A program made the translations under genes and the position numbers. The notes under the pieces are model-generated. The model worked only from the letters and a program-made list of their open reading frames with translations, was not told where the DNA came from and did not search any database. From contig NC_081377.1 in assembly GCF_030684315.1 (NCBI RefSeq), forward strand, positions 10,664,001 through 10,728,000: DNA of 64,000 nucleotides. The letters are read 5' to 3'. Positions 1 to 60,690 of this stretch are shown piece by piece; positions within the stretch are counted from its first letter, which is position 1; each line of letters begins with the position of its first letter. This DNA comes from Stegostoma tigrinum. Lineage: Eukaryota.

Positions 1-330
1 GAGGGGCAGGGACAAAGTGTATAACCAAGGTCTTTTTCCAAAGGTGGGCGAGTCCAAAACTAGAGGGCATTGGTTTAAGACGAGAGGAGAAAGATTTTAA
101 AAGGATATGAGGGATAACTTTTTCATGCAGAGGATGGTCCATGTATGAAATAAGCTGCCAGAGGAAATGGTGGAGATAGGTACAATTACAATATTTAAAA
201 AGCATATGGATGGGTTTAAAAATAGGAAGGGTTAGAGGGATATGGGCCAAATGGTGGCAAATGGGACCAGGTTAGATTGAGATGTCTGTTTGGCATGGAT
301 CAGCTGGGCTGAAGAGTCTGCACTTTGTGT
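1..330 (+). mobile_element. CR1/HER1 LINE 3' end
   Basis: Decayed CR1 ORF2 C-terminus (..SKTRGHWFK..ERF..DMRDNFFMQR..) followed by the shark CR1 3'UTR (gggatatgggccaaatg..ctgggctgaagagtctg). Confidence 0.8.
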
Positions 331-7625: not shown

Positions 7626-8609
7626 TGTTATAAAGCAGAGGTTGACGCCCAAACCTCTGATAATTATATCCAAAACACCCAGAGAGGAGCGTTTCACCCT
7701 ATAATCTGTTAAAAACAATGTGAGAAGGGGTGTAAGTTTGTGATCAGAGACAATGGGAACTGCAGATGCTGGAGAATCCAAAATAACAAAGTGTGAAGCT
7801 GGATGAACACAGCAGGCCAAGCGGCATCTTAGGAGCACAAAAGCTGACGTTTCGGGCCTAGACCATTCATCAGAGAGCTCTCTGTGTTCATCCAGCTTCA
7901 CACTTTGTTATCTGAGAAGTGGTGTAATCCATTTTTCTCAGCAACTTCTAGTGGTTAATTAAAATAAATCCCTGATACTCACTTTACGATCAACAAGTAA
8001 CAATTTATTTATGTAAACCTAACAGTGAACAAATTAACTAAATTGGGAACAAACTCAATAAAATCCTTCTGTGCTGTTCTGTGCCTTCTCTGTCAAATGT
8101 TCTGTCAGGAACACCTCCTCTGTCAAATTCTTCTGTCAGGAATATTAACTAGTTGTGCCGTAGGTACCTTTGTCTTAGATGGTGCTTTCTCTCAAACTTA
8201 AAGAAGACTGTGGGAGCTAATAATTCTCTCTTGAGAGTTGAGATATTAACTCTTGCAGTTGGCAGTTCACACTTCTGTCTTTGCCCAATTGCCCCTTCTT
8301 TTAGACACTTGATGACATATCAATATTCATTGCAATAGGGTTGGCTGTATGTGGTCAAAATCATCAGATTTAAATTTAATTGATTTTTGTGGTATCTGGG
8401 TGCCTGGTTCAAATTACTTGGCTAAAATCAAACTTGCTGTCTTGATAACAAAACAAAAATGTTGCTTGGCCTGCTGACTACACAGCCTTTTGATTCAAAT
8501 ATTTCAGGAGCTCTGCTTACCTGGAAACCCACAAGCTGCTGCCCACACACATCCTTTTTGAATATCTAAAGCCTAGAAAAAGCACATCATCTTTTAAAGG
8601 GACCACACA
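7626..8609. mobile_element. Probable solo LTR-like repeat hosting a PLE insertion
   Basis: TGTTAT...CCACACA termini and LTR-like composition. Weak support. Confidence 0.35.
7745..7913 (-). mobile_element. Fold-back PLE terminal insertion with hammerhead
   Basis: Minus CTGATGAATGGTCTAGGCCCGAAACGTC (7846-7873), a short inverted arm, and flanking repeat tgagaag(g/t)ggtgtaa (7721-7735, 7913-7927). Confidence 0.8.
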
Positions 8610-17878: not shown

Positions 17879-18115
17879 TTCTTCAGGATAAAGAATGAGA
17901 CTGGTGAAGGAATATGATTATAAAATTCATGAACTAATTTAATTGAATTATGTTTCAAATCACAGGAACATGACTGCTATATCATTAGCCAACAGGTAGG
18001 CAAATAACACCATACAGGGCCTATCAATCTGAAGAAAACATAGGAACTGATGTTTTCAATTCTGTTTTCAATCTCAGTTTATAAATATCCCAAAGAAACT
18101 GAGTCTCCCAAAGCC

Positions 18116-18316
18116 AGAGATAATGGGAACTGCAGATGCTGGAGATTCCAAGATGATAAAATGTGAGGCTGGATGAACACAGCAGGCCAAGCAGCATCTC
18201 AGGAGCACAAAAGCTGACGTTCTCTGATGAAGGGTCTAGGCCCGAAACGTCAGCTTTTGTGCTCCTGAGATGCTGCTTGGCCTGCTGTGTTCATCCAGCC
18301 TCACATTTTATCATCT
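18116..18316. mobile_element. Perfect fold-back PLE mini-element
   Basis: 71-bp perfect inverted arms (18151-18221, 18246-18316) and a 14-bp direct repeat tctcccaaagccag (18104-18117, 18314-18327). Confidence 0.9.
18220..18255 (+). ncRNA. Minimal type I hammerhead ribozyme motif
   Basis: CUGAUGA-A-[GGGU CUAG GCCC]-GAAAC-GUC. Predicted cleavage after 18251. Activity untested. Confidence 0.7.
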
Positions 18317-20717
18317 CCCAAAGCCAGTCCATTTAAACTACAGGCTAATGATCTCTTTAATCTCACTGTCTTAACCTATGAAATCAAAAGTTTTTGCATC
18401 TAATTGTATGAATAAGATCCACGAAGCTGAATTGTTCACATAGTCCCCAGTCTTCCCCTACAATCCTTACCTTAGTCCACACTAAGAGTCCCAGTCTCTT
18501 TTACCCTCGCCTACTGTCTATAACTTGACAAGGAACCTAAAAATGATTTTATGCTCTCTGAAGAACACTCACGATAACTTAATCTCTTTCTTTACACTGG
18601 TTACTGCTGATCAAACAACCTAAGGAAAAGATATAATATTTTATGTCTTGCCGAATGTATCACCAAGGAACAAAAGAAAGATATGTCTTTTGCATGCCCT
18701 TCAGCAAATGTGTTCAAAACTTATATCAATCATAGGTTGATTATTCCCTGCATGGTCAGTCTGTGATAGTCAGGACATCATCTTTCATGAAGAAAGCCCC
18801 TATAAACTTTCTTCAAAATGTCGGTATTAATTATTATAAGACATCCAAACTGTCCACATGTTGAAAAGCATTGTACAGGCACACCTTTGCACTGTTTCAA
18901 GAGTTCCCACTCCCTTCGCTGCAATGACAACCTCACAAAATCAAAAGAATTTTCAAACTTTCCTGAATGAGATTTTTCGGGTGAGTTTTGCGATAATCTT
19001 AGGAATGTTGCCGTTGGAAAGTCTGCAATATAATCTTGACTCATACTTAGCCTTATAATTTTATGTTGTGGGTCATATACTTAGTCCATGTCCTGCCCTA
19101 AGATTGCATTTCTGTTTAAGTGCTTGCCCACAGAAGTGAACTATTACATATTTTTTCCATTCAATTTACAAAGATCAAACTTGCAGACTTAGTGACAAAC
19201 TTCACTTAACTCCACTGTGTCAAATATACATCATCACAGCATGAAAAGCATAACCACAGTCAGGCTGTGCAACTGAAAAATATGCAATTGCATTATCATT
19301 TACTTCAGGCTTCCCAGAAGGAATAACTACTAAAACTTGCAAATAACACATGCTGGCCTGGCTCATCTCATATACTCCAGAAGAGAGCTTCAATGTGACC
19401 ACTATATTCATTTCCAAGAATTGCTAATTTATTACTGTTTATTTTCTCTCTGGATTTTCAATTCATATTACACCCTTGAGTGCTATAAATCTTCACTGTG
19501 CTTCATTGGGTTAGAACAATTCTGTTTTCTGTTTTGGGATATGGATTCAAATTCAGTTCAAACAGAGAGGATGAAAAACAGCTTTTCTTTCATTGGCCAA
19601 ATTTAAGAGTCTTCAAATCCATTGCTGATGGGCACTTCTCCACACCAGAAATGTACCCATAATTCAAAATAATTAGGACAAAATTAGCATCATCAATCAG
19701 CCGACTGGTATGGGAAATTAAATCTCATCAGTGCAGCACAAGATGGTACTTAACAGATTGTTGTTGCTGTTCAGGGTGTTCTTATGCAGTGAGGGTTAGG
19801 GCACAATTTTGGCACAAGTTGGACAACAGAACCTTGTCTCATCTGGTGTGTGGTTTGTTTGAAGGGTTGAACACAGTGTTGAGACAAATACTGTTGACTA
19901 AGGCAAAAAAAAAACAAGTCAGACCAACAGCCATTTGCAGGTTTTTGTTTTAGATCCATGCAGGCATACGGTGCTGGACAGCATCCTTTTTTGAAGTGTA
20001 ATTTCATGCTTTTTTGACAGTTTCTGCTGTCTGTAGTTAAGTAGGTCATTCAAATCTAATAAATAGTTCAGTTTCACGTGGCACAGACCAAAGACTGAAA
20101 GGCATGCTAGTTGTTAAAGAGGCTGCATATTGCTGAAGTAAGTGTTCTAATGTTCTGATGTAAACGTTCATTAATGAGGTTGATTGGTGTAGGGCTACTC
20201 CTAGTAAAAGCCTAACATTTTATAGCATCTAAAGTGCTGCATCTTCTTGTGTGGGAACTATACAGTTCAACTGAAATGGTGAATAGTAGTGTTCATGCCC
20301 AAAGACACTGTAAAATTAAGATCCTAACATAATTGACATGAGCAAGCTGATGAAATGCAATCAAATTAATATTGGCCACTAATAATTAGGCAATGTTTCT
20401 TTACTCACTCTTGAAACAAAAACTGTTGTGATGCAGCTAAGGCTTGTACTCAGACAGCAAAAGCCTTACAATTTAAAATGCTAGCCTGTGCTCCTTTCAG
20501 TTACTCACTGGAAGTTTGGTTACGTTTTTAAAAATTTTTGGTCCCTGCAGATGTCTACTAGTATTCAAATGGGGGCATTAACTGAATGCTTGCCTGTACG
20601 CAAATATATAGGAACTAATTTATTGGTAGAGATGAATAATGTACCATGCATATTTCTGTCAATATAAGTTTTGAAATGAATTAAGTTCCAATGTGGCACT
20701 CTTCACTGCAACCTGCC

Positions 20718-22230: not shown

Positions 22231-22373
22231 TCTTTGGTTTGTAATTTTCCAGATCCACTAGGCTATCAGTTTCAATCTCAACATTCTAGGAAACCGACAA
22301 AAATCCAGCATCCGCATGTTTCTTGCATAGGTCAAGGAGTTTCTGCTGAACACAATAGCTCTGTTTTGACATA

Positions 22374-23296
22374 AGATAATAAAGCGTGAAGCTAGATGAA
22401 CACAGCAGGCCAAGTAGCATCTCAGGAGCACAAAAGCTGACGTTTCGGGCCTAGGCCCTTCATCAGAGAGGGGGATGGGGTGAGGGTTCTGGAATAAATA
22501 GGGAGAGAGGGGGAGGCGGACCGAAGATGGAGAGAAAAGAAGATAGGTGGAGAGGAGAATCTATGTGGGGAGGTAGGGACGGGGCAGGTGAGTCCAGGGA
22601 GGACGGACAGGTCAAGGAGGCGGGATGAGGTTAGTAGGTAGGAAATGGAGGTGCAGCTTGAGGTGGGAGGAGGGGATAGGTGAGAGGAAGGACAGGTTAG
22701 GGAGGTGGGGACAAGCTGGGCGGGTTTTGGGATGCAGTAGGGGGAGGGGACGAGTTGGGCTGGTTTTGGGATGCAGTGGGGGAAGGGGAGATTTTGAAGC
22801 TTGTGAAGTCCACATTGATACCATTGGGCTGCAGGGTTCCCAAGCAGAACCCTGCAGCCCAATGGTATCAATGCGGACTTCACAAGCTTCAAAATCTCCC
22901 CTTCCCCCACTGCATCCCAAAACCAGCCCAGCTTGTCCCTGCCTCTCTAACCTGTTCTTCCTCTCACCTATCCCCTCCTCCCACCTCCATTTCCTACCTA
23001 CTAACCTCATCCGGCCTCCTTGACCTGTCTGTCCTTCTTGGACTGACCTATCCCCTCCCAACCTCCCCACCTATACTCTCCTCTCCACCTATCTTCTTTT
23101 CTTTCAATCTTCGGTTCGCCTCCCCCTCTCTCCCTATTTATTCCAGAACCCTCTCCCCATCCCCCTCTCTGATGAAGGGCCTAGGCCCGAAATGTTAGCT
23201 TTTGTGCTCCTGAGATGCTGTTTGGCCTGCTGTGTTCATCCAGCCTCACACTTTGTTATCTTGGATTCTCCAGCATCTGCAGTTCCCATTATCTCT
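22374..23296. mobile_element. Large inverted (head-to-head) PLE 3'-end pair
   Basis: ~450-bp arms around a 7-nt spacer (22840-22846). Each arm encodes the GIY-YIG C-terminus TLQPNGINxDFTSFK, a 3'UTR and a hammerhead motif. Confidence 0.9.
22434..22470 (-). ncRNA. Minimal hammerhead ribozyme motif (intact core)
   Basis: CUGAUGA-A-GGGCCUAGGCCC-GAAAC-GUC. Stem II is a perfect 12-nt palindrome. Confidence 0.7.
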
Positions 23297-24925
23297 CATT
23301 AGCTGTTTTGATGGCCTATTTTTTGATGAGGTGTGAATCACATTAATATTTTTAAATGCCTGATTATGCAAATAGCTGGAGCTTCAAACAAAGATCATAG
23401 ACAAAATTCTTGTTCTAGCATTTATTCTGCAAAATTGGTAACATTCTTTGAAATAATTTCCCTCTTTCTCCATCTTGTGGGAATGGAACCCTGAGTTTTC
23501 AGAAAACAGTGCACAATCTGTTTGCTCGAGGGTTATTTTAACTATTGAGTTAAATGCATGTAAGGACCTCTCATCCCTTTTCCACGACCCAAGCCCTCAG
23601 TGTGAATTTCCTGAAATGCCAAGATTGAAACCAATAACCTGATGGCTGTGGAAATTTACAATCCCGGCTATATAATAGTTGCACCTTTCCCTCTCCTTCT
23701 CTGCTAACCAAGGATCAAACCTCGGAACTTCTTTCCTTGTACAAGTCAGCTACTTATTGAATAATCTTGCTGAACACATTCATATTAATAGATTAAGAGT
23801 ACATTGCTTTGGCTTGCTTAAGAATGCCATCTGAAAATGAACCAACCTGCCAATTTTCAAAAGCTAATACATTTACTGAGAGCTGCCAGCATTTTCAGTC
23901 ATGTTGTATTTCCAAACTTCAGAGTTTGTCCTTCAATCTTCACTTTTACTGCTTCATTATGAATTCTCCACCTTGCATTAATATCTGATGGGCCTTTGCT
24001 AGTGAAGGAGATTTAATGCAAGTTGCAGCCTTCAGCAAAGATACAGTTTCGCGCCAATCAGGGCACTGATTAACCTAGCTTCAATCTCTCTCTTTTTCAT
24101 AACCTTGTACTTGATCAGGTGAGCAAGCTCTATTAATACACAGAAGGGAATAAAGCAAAAATAACACTCCTTTTTTTAAAGGAAAAATACTCAAGGGTTC
24201 ATACTAAGCATGTGTGAAAAATTACAAAGAGAAATAACTGTCATGAAGCAAGTTCACCAACGAACCCAAGTGAATGACTTGACCAGGGTGGACGAGAATG
24301 AAAAATTACTGTGTGCCCACAAATTCATGCCCAGAGACACTAAATACACTGGACATTTAGTACGTGTGGTTTTATTTCTAAAAATAAATCTACACAATTA
24401 TTTTGCACTCTGAGTATTGACATTTTCACTCACATTTGACACTGTAGGGCCTGGGCATGTTTCATTTTCAATTTACATCCCTACTTCTGTTGACTAAGAA
24501 GAAATTAAGCTGACTTCAGCAGTAGAAAGACTTTTAGAGAGGACGGATATCTCAGTATTCTAGCAGAGCATAAGTGTTCAATAGTCATAATCCTCTGAAG
24601 GTTGGGTTTTGACAGGCTAATCATATCCTCCATTGCACTTTCTCAGCTTCTACCATATGCCCACTTCCTCTGCATACTAATCCTTCACTTTCACACTCAT
24701 TACCCTGATTCCTCTCTCATGACTACATTTTTCCGCATTCACTCTGGCTTCCTCCATTTCCTCATCTACCTACCCTCTCCAACTTTCACTGCTTTCCTTC
24801 CTTCATTTCTCATTCAGATGTCCACTACTCATATCTGCTGCTCCTTCTACTGTCTCCAATTCCACTTTCACTGCCCTTCTCATAGTTCCCAATGGTCCTC
24901 TGAGATCCTGGTACTCTATGTGCAA

Positions 24926-26385: not shown

Positions 26386-26572
26386 GTAGTGTAGAGCTGG
26401 ACGAGCAAAGCAGGTCAGGCAACATCAGAGGAGCAGGAAAGCTGACATTTTGGGTCGCGACTAGTCTTCAAAAATGGTTAGGGGGGTGCGGTATGCTGCC
26501 TGACCTAATGTGTTCCTCCAGCTCTATACTGTGTTATCTCTGGCTCCAGCATCGGCAGTTCTTACCATCTCC
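26386..26572. mobile_element. Older fold-back PLE mini-element
   Basis: Diverged inverted arms with the tail on the right arm. Flanks tacaatcaag/tataatcaaag. Confidence 0.65.
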
Positions 26573-29720: not shown

Positions 29721-32700
29721 TGAAATAACTCCACAGAGGCCATTATCCCATTGCCAAGTCACCTTTTATTTACACATGGAGACTCCTTGATACTGAACCA
29801 GCACTCTCTAAGCTTCGTCTCAGAATGAACAGAACCTCTGACATTCCTGTCTGTATCTGTCAACCAGGGATCCCTGTTTGGACCAGATTAACAGCTCCAA
29901 TCAGGGAACTCATATTCTATGAAATCCAACTGGCTGACCTTGTTCCAATCACTTTATTCTCCCTCTCTGAGTCTGAGGATATAAGCTAGTTCTTTTTTTT
30001 GTAGCTCCTCCTGGGGCATTTTAGCACCAGGTCAGGTTCCTCCAACTCTACCTCTGATACAGGCCGTGTGTAACGTGCAGCATCTCACTTCTTGCACTGG
30101 AATGCCTTGGAAGAAGTTATGAGGTGTACAATGGTTGAGAACATTGATTCCATGAAAGGAACTGCAGCATCTATGTGTAAAAGAGTCCAGGCTTTACCCA
30201 GCCATTCCTGTGAATGTGGACAAGCTGCTAGAGGTAGCTTTTGTTCTTGTCGATATTATGGGGCACATCCACATCCATTCTGGTTGTGGCCAGCCTTTGG
30301 TTTCCCCCATCACCACCAGCTGTTTCAGTTTTGCCAGGGTCAGATTTTTCTGTGTGCAAAGTCTGATATTGTCAGCTGTGAGCAGAAATTTAACATCATT
30401 ATAGGCTCTTCCAGTAGTGTATCTGTCAACGGGAGGCGGCTCAACACATTCACATTTGCTAGTTGCCCCCCAATGGTGTTCCAACTTGGAATTATATGCA
30501 CTGAATAATAAATCCCTTCTCTGAACTCAGCCTGAAGCTATGAATGGCACTGCCTTGTCCTCTTTAAGTAGACACAGCAAGAGTTTGTGGTCTGTTGTTA
30601 TTACAAATTTACATCTATAAAGGTGTTGGTAGAGCTTCCTGTCTCCAAATATAACCACCAAACCTTCTTTCTCTATCTGGGCATATTTACTGTCTTCATT
30701 GGCCAGTATCCTAGATACACATGCTCTTAGGCCTTCCACTCCACTGGGCCATCTAAGGGATAATGCTAGCCTGATTCCATACAGGGAGGCACCACACATC
30801 AGTACCAGAACTGGCCTGGGATCATAGTGCACCAACACCTTGCAGGGTGAACACTGGTTCTTCACTTCCCTGAAAGCTATGGCTTGGTTATGCAACTATT
30901 TCCAAGGCTGGCCTTTTATTATGACTTGATGCAAAGGTGCCAGGATGGAGGCCAGTTTATGTATGAACTTTCTGTAAGAATTCACCAGCCCAAGGAAGGA
31001 CCTAAACTCCAATATAGACGTGACATCGGGGCACCTTTGATCACCCTCACTTTATCTTTCAATAGGTGTAGCACAGTCTTGTCGACTCTAGCCCAAAAGG
31101 GTCATTTGGAGTGCCTGGAACATACATTTTTCTCTTCTAAGGCAAGCATCTGCCTGGGAGAAACACGTAAGGACCATGTCCAAGTTCTCTAAGTGCTCCT
31201 TACTGGTCATCATCCAGATAACTGGTGACCTTGGGTAGACCATGTAACATGTTCCCCATCATCCACTGAAAATCTGCACAGGCTGATGATAACCCAAATG
31301 GCAGTCTCATATATTGGTACAAACTCTTATGGGTATTATTTGTAGCATATTTCTGGGAATCCTCATCTAACTGCAGTTGCAGATACGCATGGTTCACGTC
31401 TAGCTTTGTGAAGGACAGCCCTCCTGCCAGCTTAGTGCATTATTCTTCTATGCGATGGATCAGGTATCTAACCAGCTATGCTTACCGCTTGTTTAAAATC
31501 CCCACAGAAACGAACCAAAGTGACAGGCTTCACAATTGGTATGACAGTGCCGCCCATTCCGCAAACTTGAGTGGTTTGCTGACACTTGCGCTTTCCAGCC
31601 TTCTGATTTCTGCCCTCACTTTCACCTGTAAAGCAAATGGGACTGGGTAGGTCTTGCAGAATCATGAAATTGCTTCCTGGCCCACATGCAAGGTGACCTT
31701 GTCCAGTTTGATAGACCTTAGACCTTCCTGAAAATCCTCTGGGTATTTAATTAGGACTTCATTCAGGCGGTCATTTTCTGATCAAAAAATGTTGAGCCAA
31801 TTTAGATGAATCTTTCTCAAATAATTTCACCCCATCAAGCTTGGGCCCAAGCCTTTTACTACAATCAGTGGTAACTGAACAAATTACTTTTCATAAGAGA
31901 CCAGAAGTAAAGTTATAAGCTTAATCTGTAAATGTTCCCTCATATAGTTTCTCAATCCAGCCAAAGTATTGTGCAAATTTAAGGATTAAAGTCCAGAATG
32001 AATATTCTTAAAGACTGGTTCTGTGATCACTGAAATAGCTGTGTTGGTATCAACCTTAATAAGAAACAGGTGACCATTTAATCAGATATTTATTTTGATT
32101 CATTCTGATTTGGATGAAGCTAAACAAATTAAATGTTCCAGACCAGATCTAGGTGGACTTTATAAGTTTTGCAATCACCTGGATATCAGCCTGTGAGTTC
32201 TCTTAATCAATTCTGGTCTAGTGGAACTCTTTAGCTGTCACAAGACTACATTCTGGCTTGCTGAACCAGATCCTGGAGAAAATTTTAACCATTTGTCCAA
32301 GGCTTGACTTTGTTGCAGTGCCATGCTGTGGGCTGACCTACAGTCGCTTCTGTTCAGGATATGCCCTGCGTGCGGCTATGCAATTGCATTCACTCTTCCC
32401 CAAGCTCAGTTGAACTGGTGGGGGTATCCACTTCTATTGGAATACCCTGTGACCCAAATGCTCCACTTGCCGTATTTTCCAATGATTGAGCCAGTTGCAA
32501 TGTTTATTTGGAAGCCAGTTGGACTTCAGCTATTAGGTGCTTTTGCATGGTTATATCATTAATCCCACACACTAAACAGCATCTCAACATCTCTTTAAGA
32601 GTTAAACTAATGTCACATCCTTCTAACAGCTTTTTTTAAACTGGCCAAAAATTCCTGATGGGGATTCCCTTTTTTCTCGAATTGCTGAAAGAAAAACTGA

Positions 32701-47098: not shown

Positions 47099-47311
47099 CA
47101 GTGATAATAGGAAATGTAGATGCTGGAGAATCCAAGATAACAAAATGTGAGGCTGGATGAACACAGCAAGCCCAGCAGCGTCTCAGGAGCACAAAAGCTG
47201 ACGTTTCGGGCCTAGATCCTTCATCAGAGAGGTCTAGGCCCGAAATGTCAGCTTTTGTGCTCCTGGAATGCTGCTGGGCCTGCTGTGTTCATCCAGCCTC
47301 ACATTTTGTTA
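47099..47311. mobile_element. Fold-back PLE mini-element with hammerhead
   Basis: ~80-bp inverted arms, minus CTGATGAAGGATCTAGGCCCGAAACGTC (47200-47227), and a 16-bp direct repeat ttacccaagagatctt (47079-47094, 47309-47324). Confidence 0.88.
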
Positions 47312-49204: not shown

Positions 49205-51545
49205 GCAGACCCCTTTTGCTCAAATCCAACACTCTCCCTCCACCTGGAACCCTGCCTCTGGCCTCTTACCTGCTCTCAATCTTTTCATTGAGAACTGTCA
49301 ATGTGACGTTAATTGCCTCAGTTTCGCTACCTCGCTCACCAAATCCAATCTATCTCCCACCAGACTGACTGCAGTCAGCGCACTCTGATCTAACCCTGAC
49401 TTTATCATTAGGCCTGCCGATAAGGGTGGTGCTGTTGTAGTCTGGCATACTGACCTCTACCTTGCAGAGGCTGAGTGCCAACTCTCACATACGTCCTCCT
49501 ACCTTCCCCTGGATCATGACCTCACCATAGCATACCAGGCCACTGTGTCTACTGCAGTTACTGATTTCATTTCATCTGGTGATCTCCCCTACTCCAATTC
49601 CAAGCTAATAGTCTCCAAGTCCCACACAGCTTGCTTCTACCTCCTGCCAAAAATCCACAAACAGGACAGTCCGGGCATACCCATTGTTTCAGTCTGTTCG
49701 TGCCCCACAGAACTCATCTCTTCCTACTTTCTCCAATCCCGACTAACATTCATCTATGGTTTATCTGACGCCTTACGCCAGTTTCAAAACTCTAGCATCC
49801 TTCTCTTTACCATGGACATGAATCTCTTTACACATCTATTCCCCACCAGGAGGGTCATAGAGGTCTCTGCTTCTTCCTGGAGCAAAGACCTAAGCCATCC
49901 CTATACACCACCACCTTCCTCCTCTTGGCTGAGCTTATCCTCACCCTCGATAACTTCTCTCTCAACTCCTCTCATTTTCTTCAGGTAAGAGGGGTTGCTA
50001 TGGGTACCCTCATGGGCCCTAGTTATGCCTGTCCCTTCATGGGATAGGTGGAATATTCCTTGTTCCAGTCCTATTCCAGCCCCCACCCACAAGGCTTTCT
50101 CCAATACATCGATGATATCATCTATGCTGCTTCCCTCTCTCATCTAGAATTTGAAAACTTCATCAATTTCGCCTCCAATTTCCACCCAGGCCTCACTTTC
50201 ACCAGGTCTATCTCTGACTCCTGCCTTCCCTTCCTCGATATTTCTGTTTCCATTTCTGGGGATAGACTGGCCACTAAAAGACTGCCACAGCTACCTGGAC
50301 CATACTTCCTCACACCCTGCTTCCTGTAAGGACTCCATCCCATTCTCTCAGTTCCTCTGTCTCCATCACATCTGTACAGATGAGGCCAACTTCCACAAGG
50401 GAGCCTCAGAAATGTTCACATTCTCCCTCACCCACGGATTCCCCAGCTCCATTGTCAACAGGGCCCTCAACCGGGTCCGATCTATCTCCCACTCTTCCAC
50501 CCTCACCCCTTCTTTTCCCTTCTGCAATAGTGATATGGTTCCCCTTATCCTCACCTACCATCCCACCAGCATCCACATCCAAAAGATCATCAGGCGCAAT
50601 TTCCACCACCTCCAGTGAGATGCCACTATCAGACATGTATTCCCCTCCCCTCCCTGTCCACCTTCTGCAGGGACCATTCCTTCTGGGACACCCTGGTCCA
50701 CATTTCCTTCACTCCCAACACCTCCCCACACTCCAGTGGCACCTTCCCCTATAACCGGAGATAATGCAACACCTGCCCATTTATCTCCTCCCTCCCCAGT
50801 ATCCAAGGGCCCACACATACCTTCCAGGTGAAGCAATACTTCACCAGCACTTCCCAGAATCTAGTTTAGCGCATTCGCTGCTCACAATGTGCTCTCCCCT
50901 ACATTGGGAAAACGAAGCACAGACTTGATGCCCGCTTCGCAGAACATCCACGTTCTGCCCACAAAAAAGACCCTGAACTACCTGTTGATTGCCAATTTAA
51001 CACACCACCCTGTTCCCTGGCCAACATCTCTGTCTCTGGCTTGCTGCAGTATTTCAGGGAAGCCCAACGCAAGCTGGAGGAACAACACCTCATTTTCCGC
51101 TCAGGGACCCTACAGCCCCCCGCAGTCAATATTGAGTTCAATCATTTTAGGGCCTAAACTTTCCCTTGTCTCAGGCTACCCCACACACCAGGTCTTGTTA
51201 CCACATAGCCTGCCACTACACACCCCTTGTTGTTAGTCACTCACAGTCCCCATTAGCAACTATTCACCCTCCCAGCCTGACCGTTAGCGGCTCCTTTGTC
51301 TGTCCAACTGCCTTTCTCTCTCTTTGGGCTCTATCCTATTGTTTACTCCCTATCCCACCCACCTCCCTATTTTCTGCATATAAACTGATGTATTCCCACC
51401 CACCATCAGTTCTGAGGAAGGGTCACTGGACCTGAAACGTTAACTCTGTTTTCTCCTTCACAGATGCTGCCAGACCTGCTGAGCTTTTCCAGCAACTTTG
51501 TTTTTGTTCCTGATTTACAGTATCCGCAGTTCTTTCATTTTTTTT
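49205..51545 (+). mobile_element. 5'-truncated Penelope-like retroelement (probably Neptune clade), pseudogenised
   Basis: IIRPADKGGAVVV, FYLLPKIHK, LFTMD, GVAMGT.MGPSYA, FLQYIDDI, LPFLDI, GTFP..CNTCPF (Zn-finger linker), NLV..IRCSQC..YIGKTKHRL..RFAEH..EQHLIFRSGTLQP. Many stops and frameshifts. Confidence 0.92.
51407..51447 (+). ncRNA. Minimal type I hammerhead ribozyme motif in the PLE 3' terminus
   Basis: AGUU-CUGAGGA-A-[GGGUC ACUG GACCU]-GAAAC-GUU-AACU, with a 4-bp stem I, 5-bp stem II and palindromic AACGUU stem III. Confidence 0.75.
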
Positions 51546-53078: not shown

Positions 53079-53563
53079 AGAGGTAGTAGGAACTGCCGAT
53101 GCTGGGGTCTGAGATAACAATGTGTCGACCTGGATGAACACAGCAGGCCAAGCAGCATCAGAGGAGCAGGAAGGCTGACACTTCGGGTCTGTGCCCTTCT
53201 TCAGAAATGGGGAAGGGAAGGGGACTCTGAAATAAACAGAAAGATGGGGAGGCAATAATGGAAGGTGGATAGAGAAGCAGGTAGGTGGAGAGAAGATGGA
53301 CAGGTCAAGGGGGAGAGGGGATGAAGCCAGTAAAGGTGAGTGTAGGTAATTGACCAACTCCCATCCCAACTCCCTACCTACACTCTCCAGCTATCTGCTT
53401 CTGTATCCACCTTCCAAAATCGCCTCCCCCTCTCTCTATTTGTTTCAGAGCCCCCTTCCCCTTTCCCATTTCTGAAGAAGGGTCCAGACCCAAAAAGTCA
53501 GCTTTCCTGCTCCTTTGACGCTGCCTGTCCTGCTGTGTTCATCCAGCTCTGTATCTGGTTATC
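53079..53563. mobile_element. Older inverted PLE 3'-end pair inside a CR1 remnant
   Basis: Diverged arms, each with a CTGAAGAAGGG..CCC motif. Flanks cagcaaaggttag/cagtaaaggttgg (53068, 53566). Confidence 0.8.
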
Positions 53564-53759
53564 AACAGTAAAGGTTGGCAGGTTTGGGTTTTATTTTTAC
53601 ACATAGTCTCATCATATGCAGTATCATTTCTTCACTCATGCCAATTTCTTTAAATTCTTTATTGCTCAGCCAACAGTCTAATACTTGTAATGGGCAGGCT
53701 GTGAAATGAGGAAAGGTTGGAAATGAATGCTTTGGAGTTTAGAAGAGTAAATGGCCATT

Positions 53760-55520
53760 TAGAGTCATAGTTGTACAACATGCATCCATGCATCTTATTC
53801 TTCTGGATGAGCCTAACATGAGAGATCTTGCTGAAAGCCTGACTAGAATCCATGTAAACAATATCCACTGCTTTACCCTTATTGATCACTTTTGTCACCT
53901 CCTCGAAAAATTTAATCAAGTTAGTAAGACATGGCGTGCTGTGCATAAAGCCATGCTGACTGTCCCTAATTAGGCCATGCTTTTCCAAACATGCGTAAAT
54001 CCTATTCCGAAGAATTGTCTCCAATAGCTTCCCAACTACTGATGTGAGACTCACCGGTCTGTAGTTTCCTGGATTTTCCCTATCTCCCTTCTTGAGCAGA
54101 GGAACAACATTAGCTACGTCAGTCCTCCAGGACCTCTCTAGTGCTTAGTGAGAATAGAAACATCTTGGTCAAGGCCCCAGCAATGTCCACTCTTGCCTCT
54201 CTCAGGAACCTGGGGTAGATACCATTAGGCTCTGCGGACTTATACACCTTTATGCTCATCAACAGATCCAACATCACATCTCAAAATGCCCTAGCATATG
54301 AGCATGCTCCACACACAAACCTCACAATGCTCCATATCCTAATCTTGGATGAATACCAATGCAGAGTATTAATTTAGGGTCTCACCTACATCCTCCACCT
54401 CCAAGCACAAGTTCCCTCCTTTATCCTTGAGTAGTCTTACCTTCTGCCTAGTTATCCTCTTCTTTTTAATGTATCTATAGAATGCCTTGGAATTCTCTTT
54501 AACCCAACTTGCCAAAGTGATTTCATGGCTTCTTCTTGCTCTCCTAATTTCCTGCGTGAATACTTTCCTGCTTTTGTTATATCCCTCACAGGCCCTGTTC
54601 AATTTTAGCTTCCTAGATCTTACATATGCTTCTTTTCCCTTTTTGACTAAATTCACCAACTCCCTCACTATTCAAGTATCCCTTACCTTACTAATCTTAT
54701 TCTTCCTCCTTACAGGAACATGCTAGTCTTGAACTCTCCCCAGCAGGTCTTTAAACAGTTCCCACACGTCAAAACTGGATTTACCTGGTAACTGCTCATC
54801 CCAATTAACACTCTCTAGCTCCTCTCTAATTTTAACAATTTAGTACCTTCCTGCAAGGTCCCAACTTATCCTTGCTCCTAGAGGTCTTAAAAATTAAGGA
54901 GTTGTGATCACTGTTTCCATAATGTTCTCTCACTGAAAGGTAGGCCACCTGGTCAGGCTCATTAGCCATTACAAGTTCCAATATGGTCCCTCCTCAAATT
55001 GGACTATCCACATACTCTCTCAAGAAACCCTCTTGGATGCACTGAACAATTCTTCCCCAGCTAAGCCTCTAGCTTGAAGGGATCCCAGTCAATATCGGGG
55101 AACTTAAACTTATCCACTATGATAACCCTGTTTTTATTGCACCTTTCCATAATCTGCCTCCATATTTGTTCCTTAATGTCTCAGTAACTGTTGAAGGGCC
55201 GATATTATAATCCTTTCAGAGTGATTGCACCCATCTCAGTTTTGAACTCCACCCATATTGCCTCAGTGGATGAGTCCTCAGCATGTCCTCTCCAACTGCA
55301 GATGTAACATTCTCCTCAATTCATCATGCAACTCCTCCACCCCTTTCACCTTCCTCTCTATCTCGCCCGAAACCCTGGAATGTTGAGCAGCCAGCCATGT
55401 CCCTCTCTCAACCAAGTCTCTGTAAAGGCCACAGCATCATAGTCCCTTGCACTGATCCAGGCTCTAAGCTCATCTGCCTTACCTTTAATATTCCTTGTAT
55501 TGAAATAAGCTCACTTCAGT
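53760..55520 (-). mobile_element. CR1 LINE (endonuclease, linker, RT start) joined directly to the 3' tail
   Basis: VKENSKAFYRYIKKKR and SLTSVVGKLLETILRNRIY..DSQHGF..CLTNLIKFFEEVT..AVDIVYMD, then tail caactatgactct. Confidence 0.88.
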
Positions 55521-57939: not shown

Positions 57940-58676
57940 CTCTAATGAAGGGTCCGGGCCCGAAACGTTAGCCCCCGTGTTCGTAAGATGCTGCTTGGCC
58001 TGCTGTGTTCATCCTGCTCCGCACTTTGTTATCTCTTAACATAGAACAGTACAGCACAACAATAGGTTGTATAATAGGGGAGGGGGAGGTGGGGGAAGGG
58101 TTCTGAGATGGGTGGGGAGAGACAGGGAGGTGGATCGGGGATGGATGGAGAGGGGGTTGGGTGGAGAGGAGAGGCGAGTATAAGTGGAGCCCAATGGTAT
58201 CAATGTGGATTTCACAAGCTTCAAATTCTCCCCTCCCCGGACTGCATCTCAAAACCAGCCCAGCTCATCCCCTACCCCACTGCTTCACAAAACCAGCCTA
58301 GCTCATCCCCACCTCCCTAACCTGTTCTTCTTCTCACCCATCCTCTCCTCCTACCTCAAGCCGCACCTCCATTTCCTACCTACTAACCTGATCCCGCCCC
58401 CTTGACCTGTCTGTCCTCGCTGGACTGACCTATCCCCTCCCTACCTCCCCACCTATACTCTCCTCTCCACCTATCTTTTCCTCTATCCATCTTCAATCTG
58501 CCTCCCTCTCTCCCTATTTATTTCAGAACCATCTCCCCATCCCCCTTTTCTGATGAAGGGTCTGGGCCCGAAATGTCAGCTTTTGTGCTCCTGAGATGCT
58601 GCTTGGCCTGCTGTGTTCATTCAGCTTCACACTTTGTTATCTTGGATTCTCCAGCATCTACAGTTCCCATTATCTA
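57940..58676 (+). mobile_element. Complex PLE insertion: direct terminus, inverted fragment, then 3' end
   Basis: Hammerhead remnants at 57943 and 58550, antisense 3'UTR piece 58072-58181, and GIY-YIG end PNGINVDFTSFK. Confidence 0.8.
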
Positions 58677-58724
58677 TGGTGAATACAGGAGGAGCTTTTG
58701 ACCCTTTGAGCCTGCTTCACCATG

Positions 58725-60690
58725 AGAACATTTAGAAGTAGGAGCAGGAGTTGGCCATCTGGCCTCTCAAGCCTGCCCCGCCATTTAATAAGATCATGGC
58801 TGATCTATTTGAGACTCAGCTCCATTTACCGGCCCACTCACCATACTCCTTAATTTCTTTACTGTTCAAAAATTTATCTAGCCTTGCCTTAAAAACATTC
58901 AGTGAGGTAGCTTCAATCACTTCACTGGGCAGGGAGTTTCACAGATTCACAAGCCTTTGGGTTGAAGAAGTTCCTCCTGGCCTCAGTCCTACATCCGCTT
59001 CCCTTTACTTTGAGGCGATACCCTCTAGCCCTAGTTTCACCTGCTAGTGGAAACAACCTGCTGCCTCCACCTTATCTATTCCCTTCATAATCTGATATGT
59101 TTCTGTAAGATCTCCACTCATTTTTCTCAATTCCAATGAGTATAATCTCAGTCTACTCAGTCTCTCCTCATAATCCAACCCTCTCATCTCTGGAATCAAC
59201 CAAGTGAATCTCCTCTGTACCCCTTCAGTGCTAGTATATCTCTTCTCAAGTAAGGAGACCAAAACTGCAAACAGTACTCCAGGTGTGACCTCACCAGGAC
59301 CCTATACAGCTGCAGCATAGCCTCCCTGTTTTAAAACTCCCTCCCTCTAGCAATCACAGACAAAATTCCATTTGCCTTTTTAATTACCTGCTGTACCTGC
59401 AATCCTACTTTTAGTGACTCATGGACAAGGACACCCAAGCCCCTCTGCACAGCAGCGTGGTTCAATTTTTTACCATTTAAAACATATTCCATTTTGCTGT
59501 TCTTCCCAACAAAATAGATAAACTCACACTTATCAACATCTACCAGACCTTTGCCTCATCACTTAGGCTATCTCTATCCCTCTGCAGACTTTCAGTGTCT
59601 TCTGCTCTACCACTGATCTTAGTGTCATCTGCAAATTCTGACACACCACACTTAGTCCCCAACTCCAAACCATCTATGTAAATTGTAAACAATTATGGTC
59701 CCAACACTGATCCCTGAGGCACACAACTAGCCACTGGCCGCCAATCAGAAAAAAACCCATTTAGCCCTACCCTTTGCTTTCTACTGGTCAGCCAATCCTC
59801 TACCCATGCCAATATATTATCTGTAATCCCGTGCAACTTCATTTTATGTAGCAGTCTTTGGTGTGACACCATGTCAAATGCCTGATTTGACATAGCTTGC
59901 TCCCTCGTTGGTTCCATTACATTTTGTTCAAGGAAATTATCATGGATCCATTCTATGAACCCCTCCTCAAGGCTACCATGACCAACCTGGTTTGATATGT
60001 AGATTAAAATCCCCCATGATAATTGCTGTACCATTTTTACATACATTAGCTATTTCTATGTTTATTGCCCACCCCACCATGATGTCATTATTTGGTGGGC
60101 TGTGGACCACACCTATCAGTGACTTCTTCTCCCTGCTTTCTACTCAAATGGATTCAACCTTTTGTTCAGTAGAACCTATATCATCTCTCACTATTGCCCT
60201 GATATCATCCTTAAAAAAACAGAGCAACACCACCTTGCTTACCTTCCTGTCTGTCCTTCCAAACAGTTTGATGCCCCTGGATATTTAACTCCCAGTCATG
60301 ACCATCTCTCTGTAATGGCCACTAAATCATACCCATTTGCCATGATTTGCACTGTCAACTCATCCACCTTGTTTCGAAAGCTCCAAGCATTCAGATAAAA
60401 TGCCCTTATGCCAGTTTTTGCACCTTCCTTTTGGGTCCTATTGCATCTATTAGTAACAGCTCTTGAGTTCTCCTTCCCTTTAACTTTATTTTCCTAATTT
60501 TCAAAGGAGTTGAAGCTTCCTCACCACCTGCCAACTTGCTGCTTTGCCTTACATTAATTGTTATTGTCCCTCTCAGCTCACTCCTCGCTCCCCACCTACT
60601 AACTCGTTTAAAGTCCAATTAACCACCCTATTTACCCTTTTCGCCAGAACACTGAACCCGGCCCTCTTCAGGTGGCGTCCATCCCACCAT
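58725..60690 (-). mobile_element. CR1/HER1 LINE with internal deletion
   Basis: FLEQNVMEPTREQA is fused to AFDMVSHQRLLHK..WVEDWL..RKQRVG..VPQGSVLGP, then EFADDTK and EGVQRRFT..YEERLSRL. Confidence 0.88.

Follow-up and report, generated by a model that had tools for sequence, protein, structure and literature searches.

The question raised by this locus is how two arms that pair perfectly over 71 bp, with a hammerhead core in the loop between them, came to lie side by side in the genome of Stegostoma tigrinum. The window, meaning the whole 64,000-nt stretch analysed, covers positions 10,664,001 to 10,728,000 of contig NC_081377.1 (assembly GCF_030684315.1), and coordinates below are window positions unless stated otherwise. 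Our analysis places the hairpin as an ordinary young member of a known Penelope-like element (PLE) design.

Structure of the Hairpin Locus

The two stems, at 18151-18221 and 18246-18316, are 71 nt each, 100% complementary and separated by 24 nt. They belong to two pseudo-LTR (pLTR) pieces that make up the entire 196-nt unit, and the copy at 18104-18327 holds no ORF. Counting along the element sense strand with 18222 as position 1, the long (A) arm (18118-18221, minus strand) is pLTR positions about 25-127, inverted, and the short (B) arm (18222-18316, plus strand) is positions 1-92/95. The B arm starts where full-length copies start, and its last 3 nt are common with the target site duplication (TSD). 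This TSD is an exact 14-nt direct repeat on the plus strand, with a left copy at 18104-18117, whose final 3 nt agree as well with the bases by which the element would continue, and a right copy at 18314-18327. At each target junction the overlap is 3 nt, and where the two pieces meet it is 1 nt. The exact arms, 24-nt loop, hammerhead core and 14-bp target duplication of the earlier note were thus all confirmed in the sequence. Absent from that description was the unpaired 33-nt tail (18118-18150, minus strand) by which the left piece exceeds the paired arm; it lies between the two end sites of the element and matches the 30-40-bp tail in passages of PMC8557442, PMC3846280 and PMC11167929 on PLEs.

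The predicted RNA fold of the hairpin reaches -159 kcal/mol (z -19.6), and none of 200 shuffled sequences was equally stable. In contigs from runs X1 and X3 the sequence through each outer junction is the same without a single difference, though these runs may be the assembly's own source. None of the X1/X3 contigs listed spans the inner junction, so the support for the hairpin centre here comes from the assembly and from recurrence of the exact 21-nt inner junction, which was found at 9 genomic places against 0 for a control. The A-arm stretch (18118-18221) is identical at 10 other loci.

Rfam returned 0 matches over the whole window at the gathering threshold; at E<=10 it gave stem-driven miRNA-type and chance matches only, with no hammerhead. 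The 95-nt right arm alone as a search query missed even its own place, and its lack of matches therefore carries no information. Among the 30 of 49 window ORFs scanned for domains, a scan that would miss small exons, retroelement domains only were found. Other residents of the window include an old, diverged (about 64%) PLE body fragment at 49225-51117 (plus strand) and RNase H-like and RT fragments of other retroelements on the minus strand at 30527-30895, 53659-54144 and 59693-60049.

The Parent Element

By sequence, the hairpin unit is almost certainly an insertion of a Neptune-type PLE, with arms drawn from the terminal pLTR. The body upstream of position 1 is common to copies of the element, and longer copies carry an ORF of 700-1055 residues that joins RT, a Cys-linker and GIY-YIG. 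Of ten genomic loci with GIY-YIG matches, nine have a long match to the hairpin's element end and the tenth a 44-nt match. Many of the 30 loci with the 5' part of the ORF have the same repeat upstream in direct orientation; two of them start at position 1 and two at position 6. Among near-full-length copies, L215 and L217 begin at position 1. Long copies share with Neptune/Nematis PLEs the RT DKG motif, a C-x4-C-xx-C linker and, at the C terminus, GIY-YIG with CCHH residues. These motifs fit the Neptune/Nematis type as given in passages of PMC8557442, where the linker before GIY-YIG is CX2-5CxxC, an assignment by motifs rather than by an RT tree that leaves the two undivided. For the two ORFs that were scored, the Pfam values for RT and GIY-YIG fell below the curated cut-offs.

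The features of an EN+ PLE are present: the RT/GIY-YIG ORF in longer copies, a direct upstream pLTR, an inverted 5'-truncated copy, a tail at one end, a TSD and an empty site. Tail bounds near 92 and 128-130 are consistent with a one-end tail of 30-40 bp. An inverted pLTR with a 31-bp tail and TSD is described in parts of PMC3846280, and passages of PMC8557442 treat this anatomy as typical of PLEs and the origin of the tandem and inverted structures as still undefined. The EN+ insertions of these two sources, so far as the passages go, match ours in the head-to-head inverted terminal repeat, one-end tail, TSD, 5' truncation, partial tandems and pLTR hammerhead. They differ in that the Stegostoma unit consists of two pLTR pieces (196 nt) at very high density, with a TSD of about 14 bp versus 8-10 bp in the rotifer examples.

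Several individual copies are of interest in themselves. L126 3396-7107 (G000:C1:38.75 Mb) is near-full-length; its stop-free frame runs for 1055 residues, and its inverted 5' junction is made of three pieces. L216, L206, L204 and L202 are partial tandems in which more than 1.1 kb of element 3' end lies directly upstream of an ORF-bearing copy, and read-through templates are therefore implied. At L047 893-1024, a short copy with a target duplication has inserted into an older family member, within its ORF.

Empty Site and Target Duplication

In organism C, a relative, contigs from three studies (X17, X10 and X13) join 18107 directly to 18318 and leave one 14-mer, the single copy of the TSD. 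Based on the TSD and this empty site, the hairpin unit is a real insertion made by retrotransposition in one event. This bears out the proposal of single-event retrotransposition with only the look of a MITE, and supplies the empty orthologous site for which a search of relatives had been suggested. An assembly artefact was ruled out by the TSD, the empty site and the existence of decayed old copies. A MITE, which has fixed terminal inverted repeats, a fixed-length TSD and a unit copied whole, was likewise ruled out, as ends, centres and TSD length all vary here.

Across 50 insertions the TSD had a median length of 14 and a range of 10-18 bp, with an AT content of 65% versus 58% for the sample. 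Junction microhomology in 44 clean insertions averaged 1.2 nt at A ends and 1.6 nt at B ends, compared with a null of 0.75 and its 99.9% bound of 1.23.

Recurrence and Decay of the Design

A genome search with the unit gave 40 scored candidates, all matching nearly the whole unit. The 30 of these loci that were examined are built alike, while centre, ends and TSD vary among them. We also drew a 980-kb sample from large contigs, starting at round coordinates and made up of 38 pieces of 10 kb and 15 of 40 kb, in which all insertions were called by automatic BLAST chaining against one natural copy. Both ends were present in 53 inverted insertions; mini-hairpins accounted for 42 of these, and 18 were young; 30 further young matches (single arms, edge-cut or split) were excluded from the 53-insertion counts. 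Extrapolated to the genome, the 42 and 18 correspond to about 1.4e5 and 6e4, respectively, as rough figures (elsewhere in the analysis mini-hairpins are put at ~1e5). The head-to-head design recurs at every size, and kilobase insertions are double-headed with TSDs too. Elsewhere in the window, double-headed insertions that belong to this subfamily or to older ones range from mini-hairpins up to about 930 bp; they lie at 22373-23298, 7746-7913, 47100-47311, 26388-26561, 53079-53547 and 58080-58678, and those at 22373-23298 and 53079-53547 likewise have TSDs.

Perfect arms were found in 3 of 37 measurable mini-hairpins. Arm substitutions were mostly C>T/G>A (30/63), with A>G/T>C at 10/63 and no A>G excess, and 8 among 79 paired-site changes were shared. 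Divergence was 79/3568 at paired sites, 12/724 in the tail and 11/345 in the loop. Paired sites diverge like tail and loop, and we saw no sign of general homogenisation or of selection for pairing, which leaves the suggestion that the arms had been homogenised later unsupported. Because arms decay independently, the perfect arms at 18104-18327 mark a young copy. At B173:9241 (G000:C9:90,009,241 region, L173-L174), 491-nt arms with 0 differences flank an 18-nt spacer; such identity may reflect youth or conversion.

A sequence variant common to both arms had been offered as evidence that one arm was copied from the other. No other copy in the window has it, yet it is far from private to this hairpin: 20 of 29 other best-matching loci carry it. 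The full 71-nt arm occurs exactly at 18 other loci among those compared, and the variant is a young-subfamily allele, an outcome that the earlier note had itself set against arm-to-arm copying. As an exact 22-mer it is absent from the 980-kb sample; occurring in 20/29 best-matching loci yet not there, it marks a small young subfamily.

Two End Sites and the Origin of the Arms

Insertion ends cluster at two sites, A near 122-134 and B near 87-98. Among the 53 sampled insertions, 50 paired A with B, 2 were B+B, none was A+A and 1 was unclear (binomial 3e-13). Arm lengths were coupled as well: 25 young sampled pairs comprised 17 short/short, 8 long/long and 0 mixed (Fisher 9e-7). In a second set of 57 similarity-selected loci, 22 had both ends called, giving 9 long/long, 8 short/short, 4 mixed A+B and 1 same-type. 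Mixed-length pairs numbered 2 among 50 sampled, and L125 and L215 are also mixed. The length coupling is therefore strong, not absolute. Arm haplotypes agreed at 153 of 159 diagnostic sites, compared with 0.60 by permutation, and 0/5000 permutations reached the observed agreement. Long arms in addition share private variants, up to 15. This concordance shows that the two arms have one source.

Of the 5' stops of 52 young arms, 16 fell at -3..4 and none in -100..-4, versus 3 in 28-34, so no pile-up was seen at the hammerhead cut site. In the 57-locus set, 5/57 stops lay in -100..-9. Two short arms continue into the leader that succeeds the pLTR in full-length copies. A circular 130-nt monomer was ruled out, as the RNA runs on into the ORF leader, and direct tandem short units (<200 nt) numbered 0 in the pooled loci.

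Identity with the PLE end, the TSD, the empty site, recurrence, the one-A-one-B rule and the shared source of the arms are direct observations. Taken together, the hairpin is a short dead-end PLE insertion of two head-to-head, hammerhead-bearing terminal-repeat copies, which probably arose by priming from each strand of a target cut with a 14-nt stagger, on one RNA and at two starts; for the two-cDNA, one-RNA mechanism as such our confidence is slightly lower, while still favourable. Both 3' overhangs of the staggered cut would prime reverse transcription on one RNA, at starts about 35-38 nt apart. The cDNA from the inner site (about 92) would run off the RNA 5' end at position 1, and the cDNA from the outer site (about 130) would copy the tail, displace the first cDNA and stop at position 25. 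The two cDNA 3' ends, overlapping by 1 nt, would then be joined and the gaps filled. An ORF-bearing transcript probably served as template through its 5' pLTR. For a purified PLE protein, passages of PMC11167929 report that each of the two strands is cut and extended, that synthesis starts at two internal sites on either side of the tail, and that uncut RNA is the main substrate. In vitro the start sites did not differ between the strands, an outcome from which the A+B rule does not follow on its own. The pile-up at position 1 could also reflect RT stalling instead of the RNA 5' end.

The strongest competitor, copying by fold-back, which is the reading of the earlier note, is unlikely. Here one cDNA would fold back, template most of the other arm and join a short tail-bearing cDNA; self-priming has been proposed for PLE inverted junctions in parts of PMC3846280. 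Such copying would give both arms one source and common private variants, of which long arms hold up to 15. Loop lengths near 10 nt turn up repeatedly, the central bases of several junctions form a palindrome, and the 5' ends of both arms lie <=25 nt apart in 4/17 long pairs (permutation P 0.008); these near-symmetric centres fit fold-back priming and the two-cDNA reading alike. In many long pairs the centre is off symmetry by hundreds to thousands of nt, which speaks against fold-back. So does the loop: among 39 short pairs it follows the orientation of the short arm in 25, as it does in the hairpin at 18104-18327, and the opposite one in 6. With the loop so placed, fold-back alone falls short of a tail source and needs a seamless template switch. 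Single-arm copies with TSDs, moreover, terminate at either site (A or B).

Two separate RNAs from the same source locus, each yielding one cDNA and held together by a protein dimer or by pairing of the palindromic hammerhead stem III, are improbable. Minimal PLE hammerheads are built to dimerise, as passages of PMC4209133 have it, the PLE protein is a predicted dimer in passages of PMC11167929, mixed long/short pairs occur, and L033 differs at two diagnostic sites. Against this, two RNAs should often give A+A and B+B insertions, which made up 2/52; none of 16 long pairs differed at more than 3 of the sites with two common alleles; and arm lengths are coupled with matching stop points.

That the hairpin is itself mobile (MITE-like or a retrozyme) or a selected regulatory RNA (a self-inhibited ribozyme or small-RNA precursor) is very improbable, and mobility as a whole unit is largely refuted: the same inner junction does recur at 9 loci and ~1e5 extrapolated mini-hairpins could give dsRNA, but inner and outer junctions differ locus by locus with TSDs of 10-18 bp, the pooled loci hold no tandem short unit, arms decay like unpaired sites, the insertion is missing from organism C, and the Rfam miRNA matches are far under cut-off and stem-driven only.

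The Hammerhead Core

Within the loop lie CUGAUGA (18224-18230), one additional A, stem II of 4 bp (18232-18243) and GA, and the right arm opens with AAC-GUC-AG. The minimal type I motif spans 18222-18253 on the plus strand, with a predicted cut after 18251, and comprises a 2-bp stem I, CUGAUGA, the extra A, the 4-bp stem II, GAAA, a loopless palindromic stem III and GUC. Compared with the features in passages of PMC4209133, the sequence has the conserved core, the extra nucleotide before stem II, G10.1-C11.1 and the palindromic 15.2-16.2 of minimal PLE hammerheads, with a stem I of only 2 bp.

For the lone core, taken as a 41-mer, the predicted fold has CUGAUG bound to the strand of the cleavage site in 75% of the ensemble. 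Passages of PMC4209133 report no cleavage by a single minimal PLE hammerhead and already note opposite-strand pairs 100-700 bp apart. Since the lone core is predicted to misfold and single minimal hammerheads were inactive in that source, masking by the hairpin adds little. The proposed self-inhibited ribozyme thus holds trivially for any transcript through the hairpin and adds nothing to a core predicted to be inactive anyway. Neither this idea nor that of a Dicer/ADAR substrate gained support from the analysis. Rather than a ribozyme switch, the hairpin is probably a by-product.

Relation to Known Systems and Significance

In L1 twin priming, both target strands prime cDNA and the inversion lies inside the TSD, with pieces that do not overlap on the RNA. 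Our insertions share the priming by both strands and the inversion within the TSD, but here the pieces overlap and there are two fixed start sites. The Poseidon element of Anolis (PAc), in passages of PMC11167929, resembles ours in the two ends bounding a tail, the uncut hammerhead in inserted copies and AT-leaning targets. It belongs to another clade, its starts are reported as non-homologous versus the slight microhomology here, and those passages do not model inverted products. Non-LTR retrozymes, as described in parts of bioRxiv 10.64898/2026.07.22.740005, are likewise short, non-coding, type I hammerhead-bearing and PLE pLTR-derived. Unlike their tandem monomers, none of our units is tandem and no cleavage-to-cleavage unit is present. 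The literature covered, main texts largely from outside subscription journals, contained no description of this family and no model with two sites on one RNA.

We give an even chance to a broader proposal, that this population records the PLE step making inverted-plus-tail structures: two RTs on one pLTR RNA at the two tail-bounding sites, one per cut strand, the rear displacing the front cDNA. Mini-hairpins would then be run-off products of the 5' pLTR, marking the RNA start just before the hammerhead core, and with about 1e5 of them the family would be a large natural supply of perfect short hairpins. The A+B rule, haplotype concordance and length coupling offer a modest, testable lead on PLE mechanism, as they predict specific outcomes for the in vitro system that already exists. 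In annotation, stubs of this kind can be mistaken for MITEs, miRNA precursors or ribozyme switches.

Two minor observations concern position 1 itself. A G is present there in 5/14 short arms of the 57-locus set and in 9/13 at selected offsets; an untemplated 5' G as a cap signature is unestablished, many of these Gs being explained by the partner arm or TSD. At L242 and at window 7876-7882, palindromic additions of 4-7 nt are centred just upstream of position 1 and have the look of a second-arm stub or an opened hairpin.
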